Origin: Paludibacteraceae bacterium
GTDB taxonomy: Bacteria > Bacteroidota > Bacteroidia > Bacteroidales > Paludibacteraceae
DNA length: 64,000 bases
Assembly: GCA_024401455.1 (NCBI GenBank)
Contig: JAKSLA010000011.1
Location: forward strand, 1,894 to 65,893
Direction: 5' to 3'
In this document: in pieces, positions 1 to 32,463 of the stretch
How positions within the stretch are numbered: position 1 is the first letter of the stretch
Layout: each line of letters opens with the position of its first letter
Notes under the pieces: model-generated
The model's input: the letters and a program-made list of their open reading frames with translations, nothing else
Told to the model about the DNA's origin: nothing
Databases searched by the model: none
Made by a program: the position numbers and the translations under genes

Positions 1-1173
1 GTTGGAAGGAGTGTAATCTTTGACCGTTGTAATTGAGTCTTTGAATAACTTGTGAGTATGTTTTGCTAAAGAAAAGTATGTCTCGTATTTGTAGCAAAGT
101 TCTTCTATCTTTGGATTGATGTCTTCATCCACTAAAGTAATCTTTGTCCTGATGTTCTTTGTGACAAAGTTAGGGTAGTGGGCGATTTGAGCTGCAAGCA
201 ACGCCAATGATTCAGCCATCTTTGACATTCCTATTATTACGAAATGGACGTGTCGTGTTGTCTCGTCTGATATTCCTGTTCTATCTAACGGCAGGTAGTG
301 GATGCCACTTTGGGGACTCTTGTTGTCAACCAATACAATTTTAGCCCATGATTCTTCAAAATTGATAGACGAGAATTCGATGTCTGCTTTTTGAGTCTCT
401 GTCAGGACATTCGACGAGCGTGTCAGAGCATACGCGTTTAGGTCGGAAATGTTAACATAGCAGCGGGGTTTCTTTCTCGTCTTTTGGCAAATTGAAGAAA
501 TCAGTTCCAAACATCTTAAATTTTTCAAGTCACCATCAGTCTCGTTAGGTTGTCCTATAATATATACTTCGGAAGCAAAAGGAATATTCAAAGATCCCAA
601 ATCTTTTAATGAGTTTCTGTTGCCTCTAAGGAAGATAACTTTGTTTTCGTACCCTTTCTCCAAATCGCAGAGTAGAGTATAGCGCAGAGATGAAACATCC
701 TCATTGGTCATCAATGCAATGAGTGATTGTGGATGTTTTTTTAGCATCTGTTTGATCAGAATGGGGGTACAAATGTCTCTTCCACAAATCACGATATGCC
801 CTTTAAAAGAATAATGCAATAATCCATGTTTGAAGTGGTCTGCTCTTTTTCTCATAATGTTGGCTAATGTTGCAATTACGAGTCCACTCCAGACAACCAC
901 ACCAATAAGATAAACTAAAGCAAGAAAAAAAGTATATAATAAAGGAAATGACTCTAATTCCGTAGCGTCTTTTAGGGAAGAGGACGAGATCATGTTAAAA
1001 AAAGTCTTGTAAAAAGACTTTGAAAATGTTTCGTCTGTGAATACATTCTCTATTGTGGCAAGTAGGGTGCAGAGAAAGAGAAAGATGCATATGATAAGAC
1101 CAAATTGGACTTTCAATTTTCCCGATAAAGACTGGTCGAAACGGAGTTTGATGTTTTCTATAAATTGTCCCAT
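1..1173 (-). CDS. Membrane protein with two Rossmann/TrkA-N (RCK)-like nucleotide-binding domains; the C-terminus runs off the window
   Basis: Absent from the ORF track because it is open at nt 1. Checked by hand: ATG at 1173-1171 and no in-frame stop down to nt 1 (391 codons). Two hydrophobic stretches near the N-terminus (GLIICIFLFLCTLLATI; LLYTFFLALVYLIGVVVWSGLVIATLANI). These are followed by GHIVICGRD and later VHFVIIGMSKMAESLA, which look like Rossmann starts. No TVGYG-type K+ filter seen. Confidence 0.6.
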   Translation of the reverse strand, partial: MGQFIENIKLRFDQSLSGKLKVQFGLIICIFLFLCTLLATIENVFTDETFSKSFYKTFFNMISSSSLKDATELESFPLLYTFFLALVYLIGVVVWSGLVIATLANIMRKRADHFKHGLLHYSFKGHIVICGRDICTPILIKQMLKKHPQSLIALMTNEDVSSLRYTLLCDLEKGYENKVIFLRGNRNSLKDLGSLNIPFASEVYIIGQPNETDGDLKNLRCLELISSICQKTRKKPRCYVNISDLNAYALTRSSNVLTETQKADIEFSSINFEESWAKIVLVDNKSPQSGIHYLPLDRTGISDETTRHVHFVIIGMSKMAESLALLAAQIAHYPNFVTKNIRTKITLVDEDINPKIEELCYKYETYFSLAKHTHKLFKDSITTVKDYTPSN

Positions 1174-1179
1174 TTGTTT

Positions 1180-2466
1180 TTATTTTTTTGAGCCATCCAT
1201 TCCGAATACGATTTGGGATGAATGTACACCTTTTGTGATTAGATATTTTTTTATTCTATATAAGAATGTGACTTCTTTCTTTTTTGCGTTGACATTATCA
1301 AGATCCAGATGCTTCCCTTCGCTAAATATTACAACCTTTTCTATGGGGTTTTCCATCATAGATTTGGCAATCATATTCAGTTTCCTTTCTACATCTGCGC
1401 TGAACTCTTCGTTTAAAGGTTCTCTAATGTAAAAGGTTGCTTTAACGCCATGTGTACAGATAAGTCTTACTTTCCTTCCTTTAAACACGGGCTTGGAAAC
1501 TTTTTGTGGAGCCACTATTGTATCGACTTTGATCTCTATGGAATCAACAAAGTCAATGCATGGAAGAGTGTCAATTACGGCCACTTCTTCTACGATGGTG
1601 TCTAATTCTATTTCGTTGATAAAAGGTATAGAGTCGTAATAGGTCTCCACATACTCTTTCCCATTCTTGAAGATAATTCCGATGTTTATTCCTGCCGAAA
1701 TGAGGTTGGCTTTGGTTGTTATTGCGGGAGAAAGTGCCGTGGATGTTGTCTTTGAAGCGTAATAGTTCTTATTGCCTTCCAAAAGGTTGGAGATGCCATA
1801 AGAGCAATATGCTCCTACATATAGTCTGCATTTATGCGTTATGTTTCTTGAAACACCCACTTCCACAAAAGGGGAGATTCCGAATCCTTGCATCCAAAAA
1901 TCGTGGCTGGTGTCAACTGAATCAGTATAGAACCCGTGGTTTGGCATGTCGTGGAACGTGATGTTAGGCTCAATATAATGGGCTGTGGTAGTCTGGTATC
2001 CTTTTTTGTCGAACGTGCGGCTTACGGGAAGGTTGAATGTGGCGCCAATGTTAGTTCGTAAATCCCACTTGTCATTCAGATCGAATCTGGTTCTGAAAGA
2101 CAATGGAATATCAATCGAAAACATCTTAATGTATTCATTTAATCTCACCTTTGTATTCAGTTGGTAGGTGAACTCATTTAGTGTGTCTTGGAGCACACCC
2201 GATAGCGAATCTTGCGAAAGCGAAAATTTCGTTCCGTGGAGATTGGCATATAACCCCACGCCCACGCCTATATGGTCGTTTAGGTAGTATGATTCAGTCA
2301 CACCCAATTTCCCTCCCATAGACAAATTCATCTCTCCTGCCTCTGGTGTGAATAGCATAGAGTGAATGCCTGCACCAAAGTCAACTTGAGTTTGGAATCC
2401 TTTTTGAGCGAACCCTTGAAGCGTCAACAGTAGGCAAATGCAATATGTGAATATAAGACGTTTCAT
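1180..2466 (-). CDS. Outer-membrane beta-barrel protein with a divergent OmpA-like C-terminal domain
   Basis: 428-aa ORF with signal peptide MKRLIFTYCICLLLTLQGFAQ. The N-terminal part is Gly/aromatic-rich and beta-strand-like. The C-terminal ~100 aa (VVIFSEGKHLDLDNVNAKKKEVTFLYRIKKYLITKGVHSSQIVFGMDG) resembles the OmpA_C pattern. It overlaps the upstream gene by 4 nt. Confidence 0.55.
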   Translation of the reverse strand: MKRLIFTYCICLLLTLQGFAQKGFQTQVDFGAGIHSMLFTPEAGEMNLSMGGKLGVTESYYLNDHIGVGVGLYANLHGTKFSLSQDSLSGVLQDTLNEFTYQLNTKVRLNEYIKMFSIDIPLSFRTRFDLNDKWDLRTNIGATFNLPVSRTFDKKGYQTTTAHYIEPNITFHDMPNHGFYTDSVDTSHDFWMQGFGISPFVEVGVSRNITHKCRLYVGAYCSYGISNLLEGNKNYYASKTTSTALSPAITTKANLISAGINIGIIFKNGKEYVETYYDSIPFINEIELDTIVEEVAVIDTLPCIDFVDSIEIKVDTIVAPQKVSKPVFKGRKVRLICTHGVKATFYIREPLNEEFSADVERKLNMIAKSMMENPIEKVVIFSEGKHLDLDNVNAKKKEVTFLYRIKKYLITKGVHSSQIVFGMDGSKK

Positions 2467-5400
2467 TTCAATACTACTATTTCTTTACTTATTATTCGTC
2501 CATTAGTTAACTTGGCATATACTATATAAAAACCTACAGGCAAGGTGAACGTCTGATCAAAAGACGTGTCCTTTGAATTTAACACGATGTTTCCTATGTT
2601 GTCAACAATCTGTATGATTTCGATATTTAGGTTGCCAAGGTCACTGAATAGGACATGGAACTTTGCATTTGCTTGGGCTGGATTGGGGTATATATCGACT
2701 GACGGAACTAACGTTAGGGACCTGAATTCCTCATTGATGAGTATAGGACAAGTTTCTATTGTTGAACCGTCTGTTTTCCATATTTTTGCGTTGTAGGCAC
2801 CGACTGATAGGCCACCTGGCTCGTAGAAATACTGATCTGTTTCTCCATATAGTTCCATTCCATCGCGATACCATTGATATGATACGAATTGAGTGTCTGC
2901 ATTGTTTATTGCTACGACATCATTCCATTCTTTTAATAGGAATGGAGTTACCTTGTCAAAAATTATAGTATCGCGGATGGTGTGCTTGCAATCATTTTTT
3001 GTGATTTTGATTGAGAGAACAGCACTATTATCGGTTGATGAAATTGTCACGTCCGCTGAGTCATGAGCCGTTAGGAATATGTCGTTTACATACCATTGGT
3101 ATGAATCTCCACCCGAAACTCTCACCTTGAATGGCACATTTTTACAGACGAATTCAGGCCTTTCGTAGTCAATTTCATTGTTTGTCGCTTGACATGGAGA
3201 CAAGAATAAATAAGGGTATCCGTTGTTAATATTGCTTGTGTCAGGTTGCCAAAGCATATACACGGAGTCATTTTGTTCCTCCACCCATGCATTGAGAGCT
3301 TCTATCAAATTGAATGTCCCAAATGTTTCTTCCTTCAGTATATATGTTCCGTTCGGACCTTTCTCAAAAGACACGTTTCCTTGTGGCCAACTAGAACCAG
3401 CATATTCTTCGAAGTAATATACATACGAAAATCCATAGGTGTCAGCAACAGCTCGATTAGATGAAGTCTTATAACAATTCACCACGTTGCGTCCATCAGC
3501 TTCTCCGACAAGATCATTACCCTCTACAGAACCAATGTTATAGCAATTTGCCACAAGAGACGTTGTGCGCCCCATTGTGCCTACTATTCCGCCTGCGGCA
3601 AAATGCGCATTGTGGAAGTCTCCAAATCTGCCTTCCCCAGACACCGTATTTCTATTGGCACAATTTATAATTTTCCCATAAGTAGCACCCGCAATGCCTC
3701 CTACTCCAAAACCATTAGCAACTACCTCACCATCGTTGATGCAGGCATTTATCAGTCCCGAATTTAGTCCAACAATTCCACCTGTCGAACTTTCTGAATA
3801 TTCTCCCTTGTGAATCATATTTATTGTACCCGAGAAGACACAGTTCTCAACAACTCCTGCGTTATATCCTACAATTCCACCAATGTATGAAGAAGATATT
3901 TTGGGAGTGATGACAGTCACTTCTCCGTCCGCAGAGCAATTTTTTACACAACCATGATTTTCAGCAACCAAAGACGCACGGTATATATTTCCTTCCAACG
4001 AGTCTGATATATATACGTCTTTTAGGTTTAGGTTATAAATGGAGCCTGAATTCGAGCTGAACATAGCTGCATTACTGTGACCTGCATTTTTTCCATAATC
4101 TTCTGTATGAATCTGAAGACCCACAATATTGTGATCCTGACCATCAAAGTTTCCTGCAAATGCAATTGGACTCCAAAATTTTCCACAGAGATACAAATCT
4201 TGGTTCAGCACTACTGTTTTCCCAGCCATAGTTGAGTCCTTTTGGCACTCTTTCCCAAACCAGACAAACGCTTCTGTGTTATTCAAAAAGATAGTGTCTC
4301 CCGCCTCTACATACGAGCCGGGACACTCCTTAACACTTTCTATCCATTTGCCATCATACGGTGAAAAGCAATCACCTTCTGATGATTCAGACTCTGAAGG
4401 CAAGAATTGGATGAGTATCCCATACTCCACATTTTGGCATGGATATTCTTTGGAAAAAATTTTCATTACGAATGTATTCCCCTCGATTACTCCAGTTAGT
4501 GGATTTCTCACTCCATACTTTCCATTTAGATAATCATCGTAATTGGGAGAGGGGAATGAAGGATAATCGAATCGCTCTCCTTGATATTCTACATAAACAT
4601 TATAGTCTTCTATATGAGACAAAACATTAGGGTTTATTATGTTAGGATTTTGTTCTAGTAGAGTTGGATAAATTCCATCTATAGCGTCATCTACATTATA
4701 AACAACAATTGGGTCTCCACCGAGACTTGTAACATCTAAAACTGTTACCGTTATATCAATGGTATCGTTGCGGCACACACCTTCTTGCGTGACTTGGATT
4801 CTTCTTTCTCCTGGAATCTCTGTGTTGAGACTTATTGTATTACCAGTTCCAGATACAACTTCTGCCCCATCTATATTCCAATGAAACTCTCCAGAAAGTA
4901 AGTAATCACTAGTTTCTGATTCTACCAAAATTTCCGCAGTTTCAAATGGACAATAGGTGTCTTGGTAAACCACATTAGGCTTAGCTGATCCATTTACTGT
5001 AATTTTGAAAGTGTTTCCACTTGAAATTATTGAATTTTCAGACCATAGTGAATAAGAATAAGTGGTTTCTCCGAGTTGGGTAAGGTCTGGCTTTGTTGAA
5101 ATATCTATAATACGTCCATACTCATCCAATATTTGGATTCCCCAACGAAATGGGTCAAATCCCCAATGATAATCATCTAAAGCCCTCCTTACGTACTCTT
5201 CCCAAGTTTTCGCATCTGGGTCATATTGACAAAATTCAACAGAGAACTCTGGCGGTTGTGGCAAATAATTGACAAACAATCTTTGTTCGCAGACAGCTGA
5301 ATTACCTGATGCATCGGTAAAGGTATAATATAGAGAGGTTTCCCCTGCGGGATAGATGTCATTGTATACATCAAGTTCGTCTGATCTGTTGAGTGTTGCA

Positions 5401-6227
5401 AATAATTCTCCATCGCATTCGTCAACAAAAGAAAGATGGTCAAGAACATATCCGAGTTTGTATTGTAACAAATCAAATCTTGCAACTTCAGGTTGGAATA
5501 CATCTATGTCGATATCGAAGATTCCGAGTCGGTCGCAATCAACTATTGGTGGAACATCATCTACGACTTCAATGGTTTGTTCTGCGATAGTTTGGTTGCC
5601 AAAGTAATCGGTGACAATATAAGCGATAGTGTGGGTGCCAGCCTTTGCTTGAAAGTATAAATCGCTGTAGTGCAACTCGACTTTTCCCTCTCCATCAAAT
5701 CTATATTCTATTTTTTCGATAGGAGAACAGTCTGTAATGAGCGACGTTATATACGAATAAGAGATAGTAAATTCACCGTAACAATCCTGAGAAAAAGGAG
5801 ATTTATCCGACATTCTATAGACTAAAGGATCCGAAGGAATGTTTACAATGGGTGAAATGGTATCTGCTATGTGGATGATTTCTATTGCTGTAAGAGTCTC
5901 GTTATGTTCATCGACGAAACGCCAAAGAATGGTGTCGATATATGTATAATCGTCGAATTGTATCAAGGTGTCGCGAGTTAAATAACCGATAAATAAACTT
6001 GTTGCGGTAATAGTACTAATAGAGTTGGTTGAAATTCCAATTTTCTTGATCAACTCTAATCCTTTAGTGGTGTATGTCGCTTGACAAAGTTCATTTCTGT
6101 AAATAATCGTGTCAAATCTTGGTACGTTCCAGTCTTCCCAAGGGTCCACATAATTATCTTGAGCATTTGAGACTCCTAATGCTAAAGACAAAAACAAGCA
6201 TAATATGTAGTAAAGTTTAGTCTTCAT
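2463..6227 (-). CDS. Large T9SS-secreted surface protein with HYR-like Ig domains, GLUG-motif repeats and a type A T9SS C-terminal sorting domain
   Basis: 1254-aa ORF with signal peptide MKTKLYYILCLFLSLALGVSNAQ. HYR-like segments include GTHTIAYIVTDYFGNQTIAEQTIEVVDDVPPIV and GETSLYYTFTDASGNSAVCEQRLFV. GLUG repeats include GGIVGYNAGVVENC, GGIVGLNSGLINAC, GGIAGATYGKIINC and GGIVGTMG. The C-terminus (IYPNPAQANAKFHVLF...GFYIVYAKL...IVVLK) is typical of T9SS sorting domains. Confidence 0.75.
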   Translation of the reverse strand: MKTKLYYILCLFLSLALGVSNAQDNYVDPWEDWNVPRFDTIIYRNELCQATYTTKGLELIKKIGISTNSISTITATSLFIGYLTRDTLIQFDDYTYIDTILWRFVDEHNETLTAIEIIHIADTISPIVNIPSDPLVYRMSDKSPFSQDCYGEFTISYSYITSLITDCSPIEKIEYRFDGEGKVELHYSDLYFQAKAGTHTIAYIVTDYFGNQTIAEQTIEVVDDVPPIVDCDRLGIFDIDIDVFQPEVARFDLLQYKLGYVLDHLSFVDECDGELFATLNRSDELDVYNDIYPAGETSLYYTFTDASGNSAVCEQRLFVNYLPQPPEFSVEFCQYDPDAKTWEEYVRRALDDYHWGFDPFRWGIQILDEYGRIIDISTKPDLTQLGETTYSYSLWSENSIISSGNTFKITVNGSAKPNVVYQDTYCPFETAEILVESETSDYLLSGEFHWNIDGAEVVSGTGNTISLNTEIPGERRIQVTQEGVCRNDTIDITVTVLDVTSLGGDPIVVYNVDDAIDGIYPTLLEQNPNIINPNVLSHIEDYNVYVEYQGERFDYPSFPSPNYDDYLNGKYGVRNPLTGVIEGNTFVMKIFSKEYPCQNVEYGILIQFLPSESESSEGDCFSPYDGKWIESVKECPGSYVEAGDTIFLNNTEAFVWFGKECQKDSTMAGKTVVLNQDLYLCGKFWSPIAFAGNFDGQDHNIVGLQIHTEDYGKNAGHSNAAMFSSNSGSIYNLNLKDVYISDSLEGNIYRASLVAENHGCVKNCSADGEVTVITPKISSSYIGGIVGYNAGVVENCVFSGTINMIHKGEYSESSTGGIVGLNSGLINACINDGEVVANGFGVGGIAGATYGKIINCANRNTVSGEGRFGDFHNAHFAAGGIVGTMGRTTSLVANCYNIGSVEGNDLVGEADGRNVVNCYKTSSNRAVADTYGFSYVYYFEEYAGSSWPQGNVSFEKGPNGTYILKEETFGTFNLIEALNAWVEEQNDSVYMLWQPDTSNINNGYPYLFLSPCQATNNEIDYERPEFVCKNVPFKVRVSGGDSYQWYVNDIFLTAHDSADVTISSTDNSAVLSIKITKNDCKHTIRDTIIFDKVTPFLLKEWNDVVAINNADTQFVSYQWYRDGMELYGETDQYFYEPGGLSVGAYNAKIWKTDGSTIETCPILINEEFRSLTLVPSVDIYPNPAQANAKFHVLFSDLGNLNIEIIQIVDNIGNIVLNSKDTSFDQTFTLPVGFYIVYAKLTNGRIISKEIVVLK

Positions 6228-9200
6228 TTTCTTCCTCGCTTTTCAATGAGTTTACAACTACGTTCCATCCGTTGAAATAGCCTTCTATAAAGTATCCTGC
6301 CTCATACCAAGTGAATTTGCCTACTCCGCACGGTTCGTTATTTAGCATATAGCCTTCGTATTTCCAGTTTTTGGTCTTTAATACCTTATATACAGGTAGC
6401 ATATTGCTTTCCATTAAAAGACTAAATGGAAATTTATATTCTTCTTTGATGGTGTCCTTTTTAGCAACCTTCTCTCCGTTAAGGTAGGTTATTATTACAT
6501 CACCATGCTCTGAGTACTCAATGGCCTTCGATGTAAAGCCTTTCTGTTGGGTGCTTTTCCCGTCCTTGTCCTTGTAGGCTACTTCAGACAGTCTTTGTTT
6601 GTCGTCGTATTTGAATTCTGTGCTGATTGTGACGTTTGAATTTTTGTCCAAGGCGTTAGATTTGACCAATTTATTGCTCTCGTAGATTAATGTGTCTTTG
6701 TATTTCCCCTCATACGATATAGGCTCCATCATGTCATCCAAATAGGAGATTGAAACAACTTTGCCGAATTCATCGTTTTCTGAATGCTTGATGGCGTATG
6801 GTTTCCCTGGTGTGTTGATTACGAATCCGTTAACGTCATAGAATATTTCATCGGTCTTAAACTTGTTGATGTCGTATTGTGTCTCTTTCCGTTGCCATCC
6901 TTCTATTCCGTTTACAGGAGTCTTTTCGTCGCTCTTAAAGTTTTCGGAAAGTACAATGTTGCCAAATGGGTCGAATGTGTTCTTCGTTATGATTCCCTCT
7001 GTTACATTCTTTCCGTCTTTGTTTTTGCAGATGGTCTTAGTCTTGTTGCTGAATCTGTCGTATTCATACAAATAAGTTTGCGCATTTCCAATCTGAGTAG
7101 GCATACCATGCTCATCCATGAATGATTCTTTTATCAAATTGTCTCTGCTGTCATAGGCATAGTCAACAATCGAATAACCTTTTTCTTTGTTGATTGTCAA
7201 TGAGTTGTCTTTCGCTAAATAACGACAAGAAATGAGGTTGCTGTTGTCGTCATATTGGTATTCTGCTTTTGCGTAACCTGCATTATTGTTGATGCTTTCT
7301 CCTTTGTTGTTGAGATTTGTGACGGATAAGATATTTCCTTTGTCGTCGTATTCGTATTTGTATGACACAACGCCAGAGGCGTCGTTGGTTGGCTCGCCTG
7401 TCTCTCCAAGGTTGGTCTTGAACGTTACCAAAGCGTAGTCGTTAGGATCGTTGTACTCGTTGGAATATCCTGAAATCGAATCGGCGCAGACAAAACTTGA
7501 ACCGTCATAAGTGTAGTAGCGACATTTCCCTATCATTCCCTTGTCGTTATTCTCGTATGAGACATGGGCAAATCCTTGCTTAATCGGATTGTTGTTGACA
7601 TCTAAATATGTTATCTCTGAAATGAATCCTCGTGAGTCGTATGTGTACATAATAGCATGATATTCGGCTTTCTGCATTTTGGAAATCAACGCCTTGTTCT
7701 GTTTTTGGTCGTAATATGATTTCTTGGACAGACGATTTTCGTTGTCATATTCGTTCTTTTCGACAGCATATCCGTAGTTGTTGTTCTCCAATTTTCCTTG
7801 AGGGTTGCAATACTGTTGTTCGGTCAGTTTTGAGTTCTTGTATAAATATTTGATTACGGAATTGTTCTGGCTGTCATATACGTATATGCCTTTTTCGTTG
7901 ATTGCCCCTTTTTCTTGAAGGAGTCCATCTGAAGACGATTCCATTTTATAGGTGTAAACGCAGTTGTTGTCTCTGTCTCTATTGCCCCATGCGTCATAGA
8001 AATCTACCTTGCAACGGTAGCCGTTTTCATCCAATGTGATTTTGACGTTGTTGGCTCCGTTTTTATATGATTGGATAGGGTAGCCTGCCGCGTTGGTGTA
8101 CAAACCAACGCATCCACGAAGTTTCCCGTCGATAATCTTATTGTCTGTGAACGAGAAACTGTATATTAGTTCCCCCTTCTTATTATATGCTTTTTGTTGG
8201 ATTATGTTTGAATTTGAAGCATCGGATATAAACTCCCAAGATACTACAGTCTTAAGCATCTTTTGGTATTTCTTGTCAAGATTTCGGAGCGAATTGGCAT
8301 CTGTCTCTAAGAATACTTGATTAAAGGCATTGTCAACATTAGGCAGAAGTAGCCCATTTACTGCAGTAACAGTCGTCCAATGTGAGCATAGCGCCCCCTT
8401 CTTTTCTAACTTATACGATAGAGGCCTATGCTTGACTTGTGATTCCGAGATGGAATTGATGCCTTCTGGCCACTCATAGCAAAGTACAACATCTTCGTAA
8501 TAAGCTACTTTATGAAAGAAGAATGCCCAATATATTCCTGCAATCAATGCGATTAATGAACCAACAGCAAAGAAGAGGATTTGGTTTCTTTTGTTTCGTT
8601 GGTGTAACTTTTTCTGAAGTCGCTCGTTCTCCTTCTTCTCTTCCTCGATACGTTTTTCTTCTTCCCTGTTGTCTCTTCTCGCCTTTGCCACTTTACAAAG
8701 GATGTCGTGAGTGTATTCCAATCGTTTGACGCCACTCCACTCTTCTTCGCGGATAAGTCTGCTTTGAAGCAAGTAATTCAATTCGTCCTTTGTGAGTCCG
8801 CTTGACAGCGCATCTTGTACGGACACGTTATCTCGAAATCCATCCTTGGTCATCAATACATCTTCCAAGTATTCTGCACTTTGGACAGAGATGTTTGATA
8901 TGGTATCGTTGTAATAGTCGTTTATAATATTGTCTCCCCATTCGTTGAGTAGGGATTTTGATATTTTTAACTCGTTTCTTGCAATTCTTCGCTTGTCCAG
9001 TTCGTGACAGAACAGTGACAATAATGCAGGTTCAACAATTTTGTTTCTCGCTCCAGCAATTTTATAGTTAGATTTGTATGAAAGTTTAGATATGATCGCA
9101 GAAGCTACATCTTCGGTGACGATGCCTTCTCCTGGATTAAGGACAATCTCCATTGCTTGCTCTTCTGTCAAGGCTTGCAGACTGTATCTGTTATGTTTGA

Positions 9201-9849
9201 ATGCAGGAATCTCGTTTGAACACTCTTCCAAGCGAGGAAGAAAGTCTTCTCTTAATGAGATGACTAAGCGGTAACCGTCGTTTTTTTCCAAGTAAGGACT
9301 TCTAATTCCTTGGGAATTAAGTTTTTCCTTGACTTTCTTCGGCATCTTTGCATCGCATAAGTCAGACAATTGAACAAAGAAATCGTCTATCTTGTCTTGC
9401 TTGGCTGATAAAGTATAGAGTTCCTCGAATTGGTCAAGGACGATTAGTGGGGTGAGAGGATAGTTTGATGAATCCCAAAACTGATTGCCATGGAAGTATT
9501 CCCATAGAGATGAGTCCGCACCTTCAACTATAACCTCTTTTTCTCCGTTGGTGTTCCTTAAAGCTTCCTCAATTGCGGATATGATTTGCTGAGTGTAGGG
9601 AATTTCGGATTCAACGTTGATGCGGATATAAACCGGCAAGAACCCCTTTTTGCGAAAGTCTTCAAAGATGCCTGCTCGTATGATGGATGTCTTTCCTATG
9701 CCGGAAGGACCATATATGATAGTCTGTATGTTGAATTGGATGTCAGACGACAGCTCCAAAATCTCTTTAGACCGGCCAAAAAACAGAGAAGAATCTGATT
9801 CTTCGTACGATGATAGTCCTATCCATCTGTATTGTAGGTTACTCTTCAT
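6217..9849 (-). CDS. STAND-type P-loop NTPase (nSTAND-like) with a single predicted TM helix, C-terminal YD (Rhs-type) repeats and a MORN-like tail
   Basis: 1210-aa ORF. N-terminus YRWIGLSSYEESDSSLFFGR, Walker A GPSGIGKTS, Walker B-like LIVLDQFEE, then VEPALLSLFCHEL. A charged coil (EEKRIEEEKKENERLQKKLHQRNKRNQ) precedes the hydrophobic ILFFAVGSLIALIAGIYWAFFF (aa ~424-445, nt ~8515-8580). At least 6 YD repeats follow (YTYDSRGFISEI, YEYDDKGNILSV, YQYDDNSNLISC, YAYDSRDNLIKE, YEYDRFSNKTKT, FKYDDKQRLSEV). The tail is WKYEGYMLNNEPCGVGKFTW. Confidence 0.8.
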   Translation of the reverse strand: MKSNLQYRWIGLSSYEESDSSLFFGRSKEILELSSDIQFNIQTIIYGPSGIGKTSIIRAGIFEDFRKKGFLPVYIRINVESEIPYTQQIISAIEEALRNTNGEKEVIVEGADSSLWEYFHGNQFWDSSNYPLTPLIVLDQFEELYTLSAKQDKIDDFFVQLSDLCDAKMPKKVKEKLNSQGIRSPYLEKNDGYRLVISLREDFLPRLEECSNEIPAFKHNRYSLQALTEEQAMEIVLNPGEGIVTEDVASAIISKLSYKSNYKIAGARNKIVEPALLSLFCHELDKRRIARNELKISKSLLNEWGDNIINDYYNDTISNISVQSAEYLEDVLMTKDGFRDNVSVQDALSSGLTKDELNYLLQSRLIREEEWSGVKRLEYTHDILCKVAKARRDNREEEKRIEEEKKENERLQKKLHQRNKRNQILFFAVGSLIALIAGIYWAFFFHKVAYYEDVVLCYEWPEGINSISESQVKHRPLSYKLEKKGALCSHWTTVTAVNGLLLPNVDNAFNQVFLETDANSLRNLDKKYQKMLKTVVSWEFISDASNSNIIQQKAYNKKGELIYSFSFTDNKIIDGKLRGCVGLYTNAAGYPIQSYKNGANNVKITLDENGYRCKVDFYDAWGNRDRDNNCVYTYKMESSSDGLLQEKGAINEKGIYVYDSQNNSVIKYLYKNSKLTEQQYCNPQGKLENNNYGYAVEKNEYDNENRLSKKSYYDQKQNKALISKMQKAEYHAIMYTYDSRGFISEITYLDVNNNPIKQGFAHVSYENNDKGMIGKCRYYTYDGSSFVCADSISGYSNEYNDPNDYALVTFKTNLGETGEPTNDASGVVSYKYEYDDKGNILSVTNLNNKGESINNNAGYAKAEYQYDDNSNLISCRYLAKDNSLTINKEKGYSIVDYAYDSRDNLIKESFMDEHGMPTQIGNAQTYLYEYDRFSNKTKTICKNKDGKNVTEGIITKNTFDPFGNIVLSENFKSDEKTPVNGIEGWQRKETQYDINKFKTDEIFYDVNGFVINTPGKPYAIKHSENDEFGKVVSISYLDDMMEPISYEGKYKDTLIYESNKLVKSNALDKNSNVTISTEFKYDDKQRLSEVAYKDKDGKSTQQKGFTSKAIEYSEHGDVIITYLNGEKVAKKDTIKEEYKFPFSLLMESNMLPVYKVLKTKNWKYEGYMLNNEPCGVGKFTWYEAGYFIEGYFNGWNVVVNSLKSEEENED

Positions 9850-9859
9850 GCTTATAATA

Positions 9860-11152
9860 TTAACGTGACTGCGAACGCAGATTCCTGATTGTTTTCTTGA
9901 TGTTTTCTTCTCTGTCTTCTTTCCTGAAGTCTAGAACATGCTTGTTCTTGAAGAAGTTGGTGATAATATCATTCCCCAAATCGACATCGTCGATGGCGAT
10001 AGGGTAGATGAATGAGTCTGAACCTCTCCATTCTATTTCTTCACTGGCCCATGTCCATTCTCGTTTGTAGAATCGTCTGCCTGGATTCAATACGTTTTTT
10101 GATAGAATAGGGATGAATGCCTTGCAATCTTCGATGTTTTTCTTGATTGCTTTCACATATTCATCACCTGGTTCAAGTGAGGCCTTGTCAAACCATACTC
10201 CAACCCCTAGTCGCTTGAATGTCTCTGCAATTTCGTTGGCCGTTTCAAAGTCTTCGCTGGCGTATGAGATGAAGATCTCCTTTTTGAGATCTTCGGATTT
10301 GAAATCTTTGTATCGGGTCACTAATTCAGAAATGAAGTTTTCCGCATCGTCGTGTATGCTTGTTCGCATTCGAGAAAGAAATCCGACCAATTGCTCGTCC
10401 AATTTGCTATCCGCAATCAACCCAATACGGGATGAACTGGCGGCATGAGACGACGTTTTCATTGAGTGTAGGAAAAATCTGAAAAGCCAGTTTGGATAAT
10501 TGCATCCGATTACCAACAGATATTTGTCTCTCAATAAATTGGATAACCTTTTAGGCCTATAACTTTCTGACATCCAATCTGACACAAAATCCAGCATGTC
10601 GTCATCTGACAGAACAAATGAGTTGGGACAGACGTTGGCTTTGCCAAATATTTGATAACAAGTGGGTTGGTGTTCGTCTTCTATGTCGTCTTTTGTGGTG
10701 TGCTTTTCGTAAGATAGATTTTTTACTTTTCCTTTCCCCCAAACAGACTCCATGACTTTGAATACGAACTGCCCAAACGAAGTCGTCAGTACAAGTTTGA
10801 ATTGATCGATTGAGAGTAGTTCTTTTAGTTGGTTGGAAAAAACGAATTGAGAACTTTCCATCTCCTTGAGAATTTGGCAAGTCTCATAGTATGGGTCGGA
10901 ATCAATGTTGTCCCAGTAGGGCTCGAAAAATTTGCTTGAAAGTTGAGTGACATCCAACTGATCTTGAATTCCCAATCTTTGTCCTAGTTGTTTTGCAATG
11001 TAGGCCTTAAAAGGCATTGGTTTGCCGTTCTCCGTCACATTGAACAATTCGTCTCCAATGATAGGTATCACATTGCCTTTTGATATTTCAGATAAAAGCA
11101 ACATCCACCCTCTATCGTTCAATTTGGTTGTCTTTTGCACAAATTCCATCAA
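9860..11152 (-). CDS. Two-domain protein: N-terminal SIR2-like (SIR2_2/DHS-like fold) plus C-terminal TIR domain
   Basis: 430-aa ORF. The C-terminal ~140 aa has TIR hallmarks: EIFISYASEDFETANEIAETFKRLGVGVWFDKASLEPGDEY...AFIPILSKNVL...REWTWASEEI. The N-terminal part follows the SIR2_2 block order: VIPIIGDELF / LVLTTSFGQF / YQIFGK..FVLSDDDMLDF / LLVIGCNYPNWLFRFF. Confidence 0.7.
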   Translation of the reverse strand: MMEFVQKTTKLNDRGWMLLLSEISKGNVIPIIGDELFNVTENGKPMPFKAYIAKQLGQRLGIQDQLDVTQLSSKFFEPYWDNIDSDPYYETCQILKEMESSQFVFSNQLKELLSIDQFKLVLTTSFGQFVFKVMESVWGKGKVKNLSYEKHTTKDDIEDEHQPTCYQIFGKANVCPNSFVLSDDDMLDFVSDWMSESYRPKRLSNLLRDKYLLVIGCNYPNWLFRFFLHSMKTSSHAASSSRIGLIADSKLDEQLVGFLSRMRTSIHDDAENFISELVTRYKDFKSEDLKKEIFISYASEDFETANEIAETFKRLGVGVWFDKASLEPGDEYVKAIKKNIEDCKAFIPILSKNVLNPGRRFYKREWTWASEEIEWRGSDSFIYPIAIDDVDLGNDIITNFFKNKHVLDFRKEDREENIKKTIRNLRSQSR

Positions 11153-11427: not shown

Positions 11428-12414
11428 TTAGTCAAAAAAACTGAAGAAACGCTTTTTAGGCGATTCAAAGTCGAGTTTTTCTCTAGGCCTGTCATTGATT
11501 TTAGCGACAATGAAAGCAAGTTTCTTGTCAGAAATAAAGTTCAGCTCCATCTCTTTAGGGATATACTGACGAATAAGTTTGTTGGCATTTTCGATGGCGC
11601 CCTTCTGCCAAGAGGAATATGGGTCAGCAAAAAAGACAGGGACCTTAAGTCTCTTGGAAATGGACAAGTGTTCAGCGAATTCCGAACCGTTATCGGTGGT
11701 GATGGTTTTAAGTGCGAAGCCTTTATAAGGGAGAAGAAGCCTCCAAACAACCGAAGCGAGGGCAGCCGCATTTTTCCCATTAGGGAGGTTAGCCGCAAGG
11801 ATGAAGTTTGTGCTGCGCTCCGTAAGAGTAAGTATGGCCCCTTTATTGCCAGGCCCAACAATCGTGTCCATCTCCCAGTCCCCAAAACGAGATCCATCGG
11901 CCTCTTTAGGACGCTCATGTATGCTGACCCTGCCGGGGATGTTTTTAGCCACCTGCTTGATCCAATGATGCCTATATTTCATTTTGTGCCTACAATGACT
12001 GGCGAGCACACCCGACTTGTCGTTTCTGATGATTTGGTAAATAGCCTCGTGAGAAACCTTTATGGAATAGTTCTTTTCAAGCCATCCAGCCGTTTGTCTG
12101 GGAGACCAATCCTTCGTTATGCAGTCGTTAATCAGCATGACAATTTCGGGTTTCAACTTCCTGTTTGAGGTCCTATGAGCCAGCTTTTTAGCTTTTTCGT
12201 CAGCGGCAACCCAATTGTATCCAGAACGGGAACCTCCATGCCTCTTGATTTCCCTACAAACTGTACTTTCGCTGACTTTTATGGCCTGAGCAATAGCCTT
12301 CAGCGACTTTTTTTCTTGTAATCCCAGATAAATCCCATATCTTTGCTCTCGGGTAAGATGATTGTACATATGCAATACAAAATTATCAAACCTATTGGAG
12401 ACTTCGGTCTCCAT
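11428..12414 (-). CDS. IS30 family transposase
   Basis: The ORF track gives 11428..12486, but the first 24 codons translate a palindrome. Likely starts are METEV (12414) or MYNHLTREQRYGIYLG (12369). It has an N-terminal HTH (SESTVCREIKRHGG) and a DDE-type core (WEMDTIVG...ITTDNGSEF...WQKGAIENANKLIRQY) typical of IS30. Confidence 0.9.
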   Translation of the reverse strand: METEVSNRFDNFVLHMYNHLTREQRYGIYLGLQEKKSLKAIAQAIKVSESTVCREIKRHGGSRSGYNWVAADEKAKKLAHRTSNRKLKPEIVMLINDCITKDWSPRQTAGWLEKNYSIKVSHEAIYQIIRNDKSGVLASHCRHKMKYRHHWIKQVAKNIPGRVSIHERPKEADGSRFGDWEMDTIVGPGNKGAILTLTERSTNFILAANLPNGKNAAALASVVWRLLLPYKGFALKTITTDNGSEFAEHLSISKRLKVPVFFADPYSSWQKGAIENANKLIRQYIPKEMELNFISDKKLAFIVAKINDRPREKLDFESPKKRFFSFFD

Positions 12415-12447
12415 TTTTGTTTTTTTTATATTGCTTCTTGATTTCCT

Positions 12448-12503
12448 AAAGAGTCGGATGAAGGATGCAGGGGCTAGCCCCTGCATCCTTCATCCGACTC
12501 TTT
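12448..12503. repeat. Perfect 56-nt palindrome inside the IS30 right end, just upstream of the transposase start
   Basis: AAAGAGTCGGATGAAGGATGCAGGGGC-TA-GCCCCTGCATCCTTCATCCGACTCTTT. The arms are exact reverse complements with the centre between 12475 and 12476. Confidence 0.95.
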
Positions 12504-27991: not shown

Positions 27992-30900
27992 TTATGCATT
28001 GTTGGACTTCGAAGGAGGTATGCCGAACAGTGTCTTGAACTTTTTGCTGAAATAGTGAGGGTCGTTGAACCCGACTTCGTAAGCGATTTCGCTGATGTTC
28101 ATGTCCGAATTCTCTAAAAGGTATTTTGCCTTGTGGAGACGGTATTCGTTGATGAGGGTGTTGGATGTTTTTCCCGTCAACATCTTCAACTTTCGGTTGA
28201 GGGTGGACTGGCTCATCTCCAAGTCGGCGCAGATGTCATCGATGGAGAAGTTGGAATCTTTATATCTGTTTTCGATGGAGGCCATGATGCGCTCCAGCAT
28301 CGGACTGATGATTGTCTTGTCTGGCGTTTCTTCCGATGATTCGCCTTTGGAGATGTTTTCCATTTGTTGTGCAAGGATCATCTTGGTCTGCGCTTGCTGT
28401 GTCATTAGTATATTGCAGAGCTTTATCAAAAGTTCGTCGTCAACAAATGGCTTGGAGAGGTAGTCGATGGCTCCACTGAGGAGGCCGTTCAAACGGTCGG
28501 CGTCTGAGTTCCGAGCCGAAAGGAATAGGAATGGAATGGAGGCCGTCTCCTCTTGGCTGTGGATGTTCTTGGCGAACGCGATTCCATCCATTACGGGCAT
28601 CTCTACGTCGCTTAAGATGATGTCGGGTCTGTTTTGATTGATGATTTCAAGGGCCTCGGCTCCGTTGCTTGCTTCTGTTACAATCATGAATTGTTCCAAA
28701 AGTTTGCGTATGTGTAATCGGATGAGAGAGTCGTCTTCTACGATGAGAATGCTTGTTTCGTCCAACAGACTGAAGTTGAGGTCTTCCAGCCTATTGATTT
28801 TCTCTGCTCTCTTTTCTTCGCGTTCTTTAACCAAATCAATGGCCATCGGCATCTTGATGGTGAAGTTGGTGCCTTTGCCCTTTTCGCTTTCTATCGTCAT
28901 TTCAGACTTCATAAGGTCTAACAGTTGCTTGCAAGCCTTAAGTCCCAATCCGGTTCCTTTTTCGTTGTTCGTGCCAAGGGTGCTTTCTCCGCTGAATATC
29001 TTTTGTTTTTGTTCTTCGCTCATGCCTACACCGTTGTCGTGGACGGATACGAAGATGTGGCCTTCGTCCTCCCACGCTTTGATGTCGATGTTGCCATCGT
29101 TAGGGGTAAACTTGATGGCGTTGGCTATCAAGTTTCGGATGACTACCGCTATCATTCTTGGATCGACGAATGCCTTTGATTGGACCTCGTTGGAGAATGT
29201 GAGTTTAAGCGACTTTTCTGCCGATAGGTTTTTGAAAAACGAAATGTTGTCCTTGATGATGAGCGGAATGGTTGTCTCCATCGGGAGATAAGGCATCTCC
29301 TCGTTTTGCGCCGTGGCCCATTGGAGCAACTTAGACAACTCTGTTTGTAGCGATTTTGCGCTTTCGGCAACGTCAGCAATGATTTTTCTCTTTTGCTCGT
29401 CGCTGATGGATGTGGCGTCTTTGGATAATCTGTCCATGGCACTTGCAATTCCGAACATCGGATTTTTTAGGTCGTGTGCGATGATTGATAGAATCCTGTC
29501 CTTGCTGCTCAATGCGTTGCTCAACTCCTCGTTTTTCATCTCGATCAATATCTGATTCTCTTTCAAGAAGTTGTTTTGCTGCGTAATCTCTTGATTGGCT
29601 TCGTTCAATTCTTTCGTACGCTCCATTACCTTCTGCTCGAGGATTTTTTTCTGTTTGGTGATGCGCTTGATGCGGTGACTGAGTCCTATGGCAATCAGAG
29701 AGCCTATGAATAGTAGCAGAAGTGCCCTGAACCACCAAGTCTCCCACCAAGGTGGAAGGACGGTGATGTGGAGAGAAATCGTTTTCACATCATTGGGAAG
29801 GTCAGGCTTGTAGGCTCTCAATTCCAGGGTGTATTCGCCCGAAGGAATGTAGGAGAAATTAATTTTGTGGTTGGATTCGACACGAGTCCATTTGTCGTTG
29901 AGCCCGATTAGTCGGTAGTCGCACAAAGCCTTGAAGCCGGAGTAGTTGATGATGTCTATGTTGAACTCGATTTCCGTCTCGTCGTGGTTGAGGGTTATGC
30001 TTTGCGTGTTGGATATGCTGCCGTTGGGCAGTATTCTGCCGAATGTCTCTGGCCTTGCCCCGGAGATAAAGATGTCAGAGATGGCAAAATGTCTGATTGT
30101 ATTGTTCTCGTCGTTTTGAGATGGGTCGAAGGCTAAAAATCCATCGTTGCACCCGAAGAAAAGGCGGCCGTTCGAATCGCAAAATCCGGAACGGAGCGAG
30201 AAGTAGTTGGCCCCCTTGTCCGAGAAGTCGCTGGCGTAAGGCTTGCAAGTATTCTCTTTGGTGTCAATGGCCAGAATGCCGTTGGAACCGCTGGTGTATA
30301 AGATGCCGTCCTTTCCGATGCAGATGGATCCGTATTCTCCTTCGGGAACGTAGTTGAGTGTATCACAATGGTAGCCGTCGGCAGAGTAGCGTAGGATGTA
30401 TTTGCTTGTGGCGGCGAAAAGTTGCCCATCTTGGTCGCATACTGCGTCGTAAATGGCCAATGGGTTGTGCTTGTCCTTGTTAGGCGTGGAGAACAGGACG
30501 GGGCGCATCTCTGCACAGCGGCAGCGCCAAATGGCTCTGGGGGTCAGTACCCACCGGCTGTCGCTTCTACCTTCTACCACTTTGTAAACCCATTTTTCCG
30601 ATTCGGTGTTAGGTGCGTTTGGAAGTCTCTTTTGCCATTGGCCGTTTGTGTTTCGGACGTATATGCCGTCACCTGCCGTGCCGACCCAGACTTCACCGTT
30701 TTTCATGACTGTCGCGGAGAAGAAGCAATTGAGTTTGGTCCGTAATCCGTCAAAGGTGCATGGCGTGATGGTTTGTTTGTTGGCGTCGTAAGTGTAGATG
30801 CCGCCTCCCCATGTGGCGATCCAGAATGTTCCTTTCTGGTCGTTGGCGATGTTTACGACGTTTTTATTGTCCGTGTCGATGTTTTTTGACTGGGAAAAGT

Positions 30901-32050: not shown

Positions 32051-32463
32051 GTTCAAATATTTGTCGTTCTTGGGGAGCGAATTGTATGGGTTAATATGTG
32101 ATGCAATACAATCTCGCTCTTTTGAAAACTCTTTAAAAATCAGAAAGCAACCAATGTGCGAAACATACCTGTTTTCGAGATATTGGGTAAAAATACGTTT
32201 TTTTTCGTGGAAATACAAAGGGATTTTGGGGTAAAAAGCCATTGCTCCTACGAAAAATGGTAGATTCTTGATAGAGGGAATGTTAAGGCATGGTTTTTGT
32301 TTGAATTATTAAAGGGGAAGGTGAAACCCCTGGCTCGTCTTTTAGAATGCAAGGTCTGTCAATAAATAAGCGTAAATGCTTGAAATTTATGATGAATAAT
32401 GGCTTGTTTTTCTATAAAAATGATGATATTTGCAGTTGGGATTTTATTTGAAATATATATAAT

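Follow-up and report, generated by a model that had tools for sequence, protein, structure and literature searches.

A 64,000-nucleotide stretch of a Paludibacteraceae bacterium (assembly GCA_024401455.1, contig JAKSLA010000011.1, positions 1,894 to 65,893; hereafter the window) carries a gene for a STAND NTPase whose C-terminal YD-repeat region lies behind a single hydrophobic helix, preceded by a gene for a protein that joins a SIR2-like domain to a TIR domain. We read these two genes as an NLR-like conflict system with signalling across the inner membrane, probably against phages or competitors, and we give this reading a probability of about 0.6. From the N to the C terminus, the STAND protein comprises an nSTAND1 NTPase, a stalk and transmembrane (TM) helix (amino acids, aa, 383–445), an all-beta region of 765 residues and a weak MORN-like tail (Table 1). 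Judged from sequence comparison, the new element would be a STAND/TIR conflict system with a predicted TM extracytoplasmic sensor and a pseudo-SIR2 adaptor, the STAND/TIR logic itself being known.

A preliminary description of the STAND gene, made from the DNA letters alone, had recognized FFGR, GPSGIGKTS and DQFEE as nSTAND-type motifs, and this assignment was borne out by alignment and by profile searches. In an alignment of 30 sequences, G25-R26 of FFGR and the Walker A and Walker B columns were all invariant, and the Pfam model nSTAND1 (PF20703) matched aa 11–242 with an E-value of 2.5e-26 and 93.6 bits (cut-off 27.1); in homologues, coverage extended up to about position 367 of the 379 in the profile, reaching about residue 400. 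NCBIfam gave only insignificant matches to the protein (E 0.024 and 0.071). The AlphaFold model of aa 1–450 (pLDDT 87.4, pTM 0.77) showed a P-loop domain of the alpha/beta type, helices and, at residues 366–379, a beta-hairpin wing, and its Foldseek matches were Cdc6/ORC AAA+ proteins, NLRP2, NLRP3, NLRP7 and NLRP9, SAMD9 and Avs4, the resemblance to Cdc6/ORC, NLRPs and Avs4 being as expected for a STAND module. Taken together, the profile and alignment results place the NTPase in the nSTAND1 clade.

Behind the NTPase, a Lys/Arg-rich coiled coil followed by one 22-residue hydrophobic helix had been described, and both were confirmed, with the refinement that AlphaFold built residues 383–444 as one unbroken helix, which makes one stalk of the charged 'coiled coil' and the membrane helix. 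The 22-residue segment is uncharged, and aa 424–442 reached a Kyte-Doolittle (KD) value of 2.24 over 19 residues, the next-best segment of the protein scoring 1.06. The combination of a membrane helix and repeats recurs beyond this one sequence: among 191 relatives, defined as family proteins of at least 600 aa from database matches and genomic loci, 167 had a helix with a KD value of at least 1.6 directly after the NTPase, with values of up to 3.4. The full architecture was found in most of 120 homologues among the matches listed and in 80 genomic loci, indicating that the layout is not due to chance. On this comparison the membrane helix is a family trait and not a peculiarity of one sequence.

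The charges flanking the helix bear on its orientation. In the window protein, the 15-residue flanks contain six Lys/Arg residues on the N-terminal side and one on the C-terminal side, and the means for the 167 helix-bearing relatives were 6.1 and 2.7, respectively; the N-terminal flank was the more positive in 151 of them, the flanks were equal in 12, and the C-terminal flank was the more positive in four. No N-terminal signal peptide was found in the STAND protein, and the NTPase requires cytoplasmic ATP. With a single span, these properties put the C-terminal 765 residues across the inner membrane, and the predicted N-in/C-out topology is well supported by sequence features. The earlier use of the positive-inside rule, which had assigned the NTPase to the cytoplasm and the YD region to the periplasm, therefore holds at the level of prediction.

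The predicted extracytoplasmic arm (aa 446–1210) was modelled by AlphaFold from a 42-sequence alignment as an all-beta structure (pLDDT 86.5, pTM 0.74) consisting of a small juxtamembrane domain, in which a 'GWPxG' segment is conserved in the family consensus, a solenoid of about 22 beta hairpins with confidence mostly above 85, a poorly ordered linker and a short MORN-like hairpin module. When the model was compared with the PDB by Foldseek, the cores of Rhs proteins of the type VI secretion system (T6SS; 8qja, 8qjc and 8uy4) matched at E-values of about 1e-21 to 1e-20, and teneurins and TcB-TcC shells, including 4o9x, at 1e-15 to 1e-12, all with a probability of 1.0 (overall E 2e-21 to 1e-12). 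The Pfam model RHS_repeat (PF05593) gave a marginal 24.3 bits for the full-length protein (cut-off 22), no single stretch passing on its own, and 20.4 bits for the ectodomain alone; it reached 31.8 bits in homologue P0011, which is 38% identical, and 48–51 bits in YD relatives. The structural matches and the RHS_repeat scores of the homologues uphold the assignment of the repeats to the YD/Rhs class. The count of at least six YxYDxxxN(L/I) repeats given in the preliminary description stands only in a looser form, as the arm has seven YxYD motifs but just four or five match the stricter pattern. Similarly, the MORN-like tail scored below threshold in the STAND protein itself (PF02493, aa ~1164–1181, 15.7 bits, cut-off 22.5) but above it in P0011 (45.2 bits, four repeats), and the matches of the arm to viral protein models were MORN-repeat proteins. 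The arm is less conserved than the NTPase, with identities of 62 and 79%, respectively, to the 68%-identical homologue P0002, located in the metagenome-assembled genome GCA_045640705.1, and of 31 and 48% to P0011. An arm that diverges faster than its NTPase and is exchanged for other repeat types, as described below, is what would be expected of an immune receptor.

The partner gene, which the preliminary description did not include, ends 10 bp upstream of the STAND start. Although the list of open reading frames (ORFs) begins it at a TTG (11152), one codon before the ATG at 11149, the homologues begin at the ATG (MEF...), which suggests 11149 as the probable true start. Its TIR domain scored 69.7 bits with Pfam TIR_2, matched the TIR domains of AbTIR, PdTIR and SARM1, and retained E364 in all 36 aligned sequences, a residue that aligns with E77 of the SPARTA TIR-APAZ protein (numbering counted from the alignment). 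With its catalytic glutamate kept, it is a candidate NADase or signal-producing TIR domain. The SIR2-like domain aligned to ThsA at an E-value of 3e-7, and at the column of ThsA N112 the partners carry T, S, A or C, with N in only one of 36 sequences (S124 in the window protein), while at the column of H152 they carry F, L or M and in no case H (F168 in the window protein). Other positions (G32, L111, G169, G215 and W221) are invariant in the partner family. Replacement of the catalytic Asn and His throughout a family in which the domain is nevertheless conserved indicates a conserved pseudo-enzyme, which is likely to serve as a docking or regulatory module. PADLOC matched the partner through its TIR domain only (PDC-S66, Aga, ThsB and retron-TIR).

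The two genes occur together with great regularity. In all seven loci retrieved through homologues of 27–68% identity, a SIR2-like/TIR homologue lies immediately upstream of the STAND gene, and of 80 loci from a scan of GTDB species representatives, 76 had it upstream on the same strand. The scan found relatives in at least 450 genomes at species level, spread over seven or more phyla, and paired loci occurred in Bacteroidota, Acidobacteriota, Verrucomicrobiota, beta- and gamma-Proteobacteria, Actinomycetota, Chlorobiales and Thermodesulfobacteriota. Judged from these loci, the pairing is close to universal. The stop of the partner and the start of the STAND gene often overlap by 4 bp across loci, and the two are probably co-translated. 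Tandem arrays were also seen (L009, 146–9505; L091, 1–10004; L092, 1–8309), in which two or more nSTAND1 genes each have their own SIR2-like/TIR partner and the sensor arms differ, being BspA-type leucine-rich repeats (LRR), a short form, WD40 repeats or a 1660-aa TM-less form. A megablast search of plasmids with the two-gene DNA and a tblastn search of phages with the NTPase gave no match, and these searches thus provide no evidence that the element is carried by phages or plasmids.

The YD ectodomain was also searched against 1.84 billion representative proteins, giving 2714 matches at E ≤ 1e-3 and 297 at E ≤ 1e-30, and the best 145 new matches, all of them long YD-repeat proteins, were sorted by simple N-terminal motif patterns. 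About 24 were STAND proteins. About 19 had a TIR-like start, with a membrane helix ahead of the YD repeats in about 12 (at residues ~170–220 in those listed), and about 21 were of kinase type; 13 of these had a glycine-loop motif and a helix at ~280–420, and the other eight, of which P0131 was verified as Pkinase, had another N-terminal motif and a helix at ~700. A further 14 or so began with a signal peptide directly followed by YD repeats. Pfam identified P0142 as TIR_2 plus RHS_repeat (51 bits) and P0168 as Pkinase plus RHS_repeat (48 bits). Since kinase and TIR domains must be cytoplasmic, a YD module placed behind a membrane helix or a signal peptide is best read as extracytoplasmic, and from these architectures YD ectodomains look like a general class of receptor module shared by TIR, kinase and STAND proteins. 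Among P0142, P0152, P0162, P0177, P0168, P0131 and others, the TIR-TM-YD proteins present a Toll-like-receptor-style layout in bacteria.

Exchange of the arm within the nSTAND1 family points in the same direction. In related proteins the helix is followed by SBP_bac_3 (P0048), PDZ (P0038) or BspA-type LRR (L009) domains, which are typically extracytoplasmic, and their presence lends the N-in/C-out prediction independent support. Several variants of the layout were observed as well. In L009 (1646–5167) three extra C-terminal helices follow the LRR ectodomain, and in P0033 and P0096–P0113 the NTPase is followed by 8–13 hydrophobic helices and then WG_beta_rep repeats, both being polytopic variants of the STAND system; in L012 (2159–3969), from a Salinivirgaceae metagenome-assembled genome, the NTPase ORF ends at 410 aa and the next ORF, overlapping it by 4 bp, starts with a membrane helix, an arrangement that is either a split gene or a frameshift.

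Table 1. Features of the STAND locus and of the flanking genes, in window coordinates
Feature	Position	Strand	Basis or remark
STAND gene, encodes 1210 aa	6217-9849	-	ORF
nSTAND1 NTPase module, aa 1-382 (P-loop domain, helical domain, winged helix); predicted cytoplasmic	8704..9849	-	Pfam, AlphaFold, Foldseek
Walker A GPSGIGKTS, aa 47-55	9685..9711	-	Invariant G47, S49, G50, G52, K53, S55
Walker B DQFEE, aa 139-143	9421..9435	-	Invariant D139-E143
Lys/Arg/Glu-rich stalk helix, aa 383-423, continuous with membrane helix	8581..8703	-	AlphaFold
Single TM helix, aa 424-445, ILFFAVGSLIALIAGIYWAFFF	8515..8580	-	Kyte-Doolittle; equivalent in 167/191 relatives
Juxtamembrane beta-rich domain, aa 446-535; predicted periplasmic	8242..8514	-	AlphaFold strands at model residues 2-52
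YD-repeat beta-hairpin solenoid, aa ~537-1134, ~22 hairpins; predicted periplasmic sensor	6448..8241	-	AlphaFold, Foldseek
C-terminal MORN-like hairpin module, aa ~1148-1203	6241..6408	-	Pfam sub-threshold; AlphaFold confidence 58-77
SIR2-like + TIR partner gene, 429 aa from ATG	9860..11149	-	Pfam SIR2_2 E 3e-8, TIR_2 E 4e-19
SIR2-like domain of partner, aa ~1-285; predicted inactive	10295..11149	-	Profile alignment to ThsA 6LHX
TIR domain of partner, aa ~290-429	9863..10282	-	Catalytic Glu conserved
Exported surface protein, 1254 aa, signal peptide, GLUG/HYR/Ig-like domains	2463..6227	-	Overlaps STAND stop by 11 bp
Outer-membrane beta-barrel-like protein, signal peptide	1180..2466	-	OMP_b-brl_2 E 9e-9; 4-bp overlap with 2463-6227 gene
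Membrane protein with RCK/TrkA-N-type nucleotide-binding domain, cut by window edge	4..1173	-	Slo-like_RCK 25.5 bits (cut-off 24)
IS30-family transposase	11428..12486	-	NCBIfam transpos_IS30 E 1e-72; 276 bp upstream of operon

Downstream of the STAND gene, three tightly packed genes follow on the same strand, and all three are conserved in a 68%-identical locus, L001. The exported surface protein, for which Pfam Glug scored above its cut-off and Por_Secre_tail gave a weak match to a type-IX-secretion sorting domain (21.5 bits, cut-off 27), is 41% identical to the product of the gene at the same position in L001, and the barrel-like protein is 42% identical to L001 13734–15506; both are possibly lineage-specific accessories. 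The RCK protein is 61% identical to L001 15513–17456 and is a candidate third component that may act as a signal-gated effector. Proteins with two to three TM helices and a TrkA_N/RCK domain are also encoded downstream of the STAND gene in L003 (13875–15842), L004 (12425–14389), L006 (11263–13230) and L011; the one in L004 has a weak RyR-like C-terminus, and small stand-alone RyR-domain proteins are encoded near the STAND loci L006, L009 and L091. BLAST did not show homology between the RCK proteins of the L001/window type and those of the L003 type (E 0.011), the likeness being one of architecture only. When downstream ORFs were clustered over the 80 loci, only lineage-restricted families were obtained, each in at most six loci, from which it follows that only the two-gene core is general.

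In Bacteroidota, a signal peptide is nearly always present in the product of the gene that directly follows the STAND gene and that often overlaps the STAND stop codon. These exported proteins (in the window, L003 12569–13855, L008 10378–17381, L046, L059, L074 and L078) are surface, barrel-like, Sel1-repeat or uncharacterized secreted proteins, and their signal peptides fit a function located in the envelope. The genomic neighbours of the STAND pair differed in every locus examined. In the window, GC content is 38–41% over 1–12 kb and 44–49% over the housekeeping DNA at 12–20 kb, and a low-GC block bounded by an IS30 transposase suggests horizontal acquisition. Scans for tRNAs and Rfam families over the whole 64 kb found nothing. 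Elsewhere in the window, positions 27992–32242 of the minus strand encode a 1416-aa hybrid two-component system (Reg_prop/Y_Y_Y sensor, HisKA, HATPase, receiver and AraC HTH), of a kind typical of the regulation of polysaccharide utilization in Bacteroidales. The window is probably part of a Bacteroidales chromosome.

What the comparisons establish is which domains are present, that the helix is conserved, that the two genes are paired and which catalytic residues are kept or lost. On the topology, on what the cue is and which way the signal runs, on a role in immunity and on the accessory genes, we infer the following model. The STAND protein would be a single-pass N-in/C-out protein with its NTPase switch in the cytoplasm, its charged, rigid stalk running into the membrane helix, and its YD-repeat beta-solenoid and small MORN-like tail forming a ligand-binding arm in the periplasm; the partner would be cytosolic, an inactive SIR2-like domain fused to a TIR domain with its catalytic glutamate. 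A periplasmic cue would bind or deform the YD arm, the stalk and TM helix would relay the change, and the STAND module would exchange its nucleotide and oligomerize at the inner membrane face. The SIR2-like/TIR partners would then be clustered, allowing TIR-TIR assembly and cleavage of NAD+, with depletion of NAD+ and/or production of a cyclic-ADP-ribose-type signal, and the outcome would be growth arrest or cell death. In this Bacteroidota lineage, the co-transcribed membrane RCK protein could serve as a downstream nucleotide-gated effector, and the exported proteins encoded between the STAND and RCK genes could be co-receptors or guarded targets. A bolder form of the model, which we offer only tentatively, is that of a trans-envelope innate immune receptor, a hybrid of Toll-like receptors (TLRs) and NLRs, in which a periplasmic YD arm acts on a STAND switch, the switch on a TIR NADase carried by a pseudo-SIR2 adaptor, and the co-encoded membrane RCK(-RyR-like) protein would serve as a nucleotide-gated ion-channel effector. 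Candidate cues for such a receptor, all of a kind that arises only outside the cytoplasm, would be phage tail or ejection proteins crossing the periplasm, an incoming T6SS spike or effector or, in a 'guard' arrangement, co-encoded surface and outer-membrane proteins that are damaged or missing.

Several observations weigh against the two-gene trans-membrane conflict system. The STAND protein matched none of the families in PADLOC-DB v2, so that its putative defence role rests on domain logic alone, and no interaction surface was identified between the STAND protein and its SIR2-like/TIR partner. The accessory genes for the RCK protein and the exported proteins are lineage-specific, and they may be neighbours with no connection to the system. 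The Foldseek TM-scores of the arm to Rhs shells were low (0.13–0.39), which makes the match local and not global; the YD/Rhs repeat type holds, a closed cocoon is not demonstrated, and the scores hint, at the level of the model, that the YD solenoid departs from the canonical cocoon. The structure points to no particular ligand. WD40, TPR or WD40 plus ankyrin repeats make up the arm behind the TM helix in Acidobacteriota, Verrucomicrobiota and Proteobacteria, and these repeat classes are usually cytosolic in STAND proteins; periplasmic propellers and TPRs do exist, and the WD40 and TPR arms therefore do not refute the predicted topology. Finally, TM-less paralogues with WD40 arms (P0060 and P0042) also pair with a SIR2-like/TIR gene. 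Six TM-less paralogues (P0031, P0042, P0049, P0058, P0060 and P0094) were noted, with best hydrophobic windows of 0.8–1.5 and an NTPase identity of 46–51%; as the two that were checked have the partner gene, the family appears to alternate between soluble and membrane-anchored sensors.

The WD40, TPR and ankyrin arms, as classical cytosolic STAND sensors, together with the TM-less paralogues that keep the partner gene, are also what would favour a helix that merely tethers the protein to the inner face of the membrane, as a monotopic or re-entrant segment, or is buried in an oligomer, leaving NTPase and arm both in the cytoplasm as in classical Avs and NLR proteins. We consider this improbable, since a segment of 22 uncharged residues with a KD value of 2.2 (up to 3.4 in relatives) has the length to span a bilayer but not to form a hairpin, the flanking charges show a strong and consistent asymmetry, SBP_bac_3, PDZ, BspA-LRR and YD are extracytoplasmic classes, and the TM-then-YD layout also stands behind kinase and TIR domains. 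Even less credit is due to the idea of a polymorphic toxin of the Rhs type, in which the YD shell would enclose a C-terminal toxin and deliver it. Structurally, T6SS Rhs cores and Tc toxin shells are indeed the best matches, and there is the weak RHS_repeat match, but the TM-scores to closed shells are low and only eight of the best 145 YD relatives contain DPxGL. We rejected this explanation because the STAND protein has none of the motifs DPxGL, PxxxxDPxG, PxxxxDPxGL or PAAR, ends in a MORN-like tail of only ~60 aa with no toxin domain, and starts with an NTPase that lacks a secretion signal.

A different objection leaves architecture and topology as they are and questions immunity, proposing a pathway for envelope monitoring or cell-cell recognition. 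Much like teneurins or PknB-type kinases, the YD arm would then bind a polysaccharide, a peptidoglycan cue or a ligand on the surface of the cell itself or of its kin, and the TIR output would act in normal physiology as an NAD-derived signal or as a switch to dormancy. Several features would suit such a role: receptor-type Ser/Thr kinases (P0168 and P0131) have the YD module too, the products of the downstream genes in Bacteroidota are exported, surface or outer-membrane proteins, and the system is chromosomal, absent from the phage and plasmid collections searched, and includes a STAND protein that PADLOC does not match. On the other hand, the combination of bacterial TIR and STAND domains has so far been tied to conflict systems (Kaur et al., 2020, 2021; Kibby et al., 2023), and the exchanged and fast-diverging sensor arms, tandem arrays and variable contexts flanked by insertion sequences are typical of immune loci. 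We therefore regard a non-immune role as unlikely, if still deserving of attention, and retain the conflict system as the preferred reading.

Among known systems, the nSTAND1 conflict systems of Kaur et al. (eLife 2020, 2021) resemble the window pair in their NTPase clade and in their logic, in which a STAND switch is combined with a variable repeat or sensor arm and with an effector of TIR type. In the portions of those papers that were available, nSTAND1 is defined in EAD- and EACC1-linked systems and is connected to effectors via EAD/Death-like adaptors or EACC1, and also to FGS/CLec sensors, whereas here there is no adaptor domain, the pseudo-SIR2/TIR effector is separate and the sensor lies behind a membrane helix. 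Avs/AVAST and bNACHT proteins are likewise STAND NTPases, in which a C-terminal repeat sensor is combined with a SIR2, TIR or nuclease effector. Their characterized members are soluble, carry the effector at the N terminus of one and the same polypeptide and sense cytosolic phage proteins, while the window STAND protein belongs to another STAND clade, has a trans-acting effector and a large YD ectodomain, and has no PADLOC match. The closest precedents met in the literature are general ones: Kibby et al. (2023) listed, among bNACHT proteins, a 'TM regions' class whose members are likely sensors of intramembrane or periplasmic signals, and Doré et al. predicted periplasmic CLec sensors for some NACHT targets diversified by diversity-generating retroelements.

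The order of extracytoplasmic repeat sensor, single helix and cytoplasmic signalling module is the same in TLRs and in PknB/PknD-type kinases. TLRs also have a TIR output, and the YD module is found on Pkinase-TM and TIR-TM proteins as well; here, in contrast, a STAND NTPase stands between helix and TIR, the TIR domain is on a separate polypeptide and the topology is predicted to be N-in/C-out. We found no evidence that the STAND arm is homologous to TLR ectodomains. With the shells of Rhs proteins, Tc TcB-TcC and teneurins the arm has in common the beta-hairpin YD repeat with YxYDxxGN(L/I) motifs, but it has no plug, aspartyl autoprotease motif or encapsulated toxin and only ~22 hairpins. Thoeris, with its SIR2 effector ThsA and TIR sensor ThsB, also combines SIR2-family and TIR domains, and the partner TIR domain weakly matches ThsB models; in the window, however, a single protein contains both the SIR2-like and the TIR domain, the catalytic Asn and His of SIR2 have been lost, and the trigger would come from a separate STAND protein. 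No SLOG or Macro signal-binding domain was found in the window operon, and the NCBIfam Thoeris model scored 13 bits (cut-off 220). Zorya, Kiwa and SNIPE (reviewed in PMC13434031) share the concept that infection is sensed at or across the inner membrane; their proteins are unrelated, being stator-like motors, DUF4868 proteins or nucleases with no STAND switch or TIR domain. A search of the full-text literature, with supplementary tables outside its scope, returned no description of a SIR2-like/TIR plus nSTAND1-TM pair.

To our knowledge, characterized bacterial STAND/NLR-like immune proteins all sense their trigger in the cytoplasm, after phage gene expression. A periplasmic sensor on a STAND switch, if confirmed, would make it possible to detect a phage no later than genome entry, or to respond to attack of non-phage origin, for example by the T6SS. 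We also know of no demonstration, in the STAND superfamily, that NLR-type oligomerization is controlled through a single membrane helix; if the model is correct, ATP-driven oligomerization of this kind would be controllable in that way, and the pseudo-SIR2/TIR partner offers a tractable read-out in the loss of NAD+. The STAND-TIR system is common in the genomes scanned and is unnamed in PADLOC and NCBIfam. With an arm exchangeable among YD, WD40, TPR, ankyrin, LRR, SBP and PDZ forms, it would, on the bolder form of the model, amount to a broad extracytoplasmic pattern-recognition repertoire in many Gram-negative phyla, and a wider pattern may be that YD-repeat ectodomains act as an extracytoplasmic sensor common to signalling proteins of the TIR, kinase and STAND kinds.

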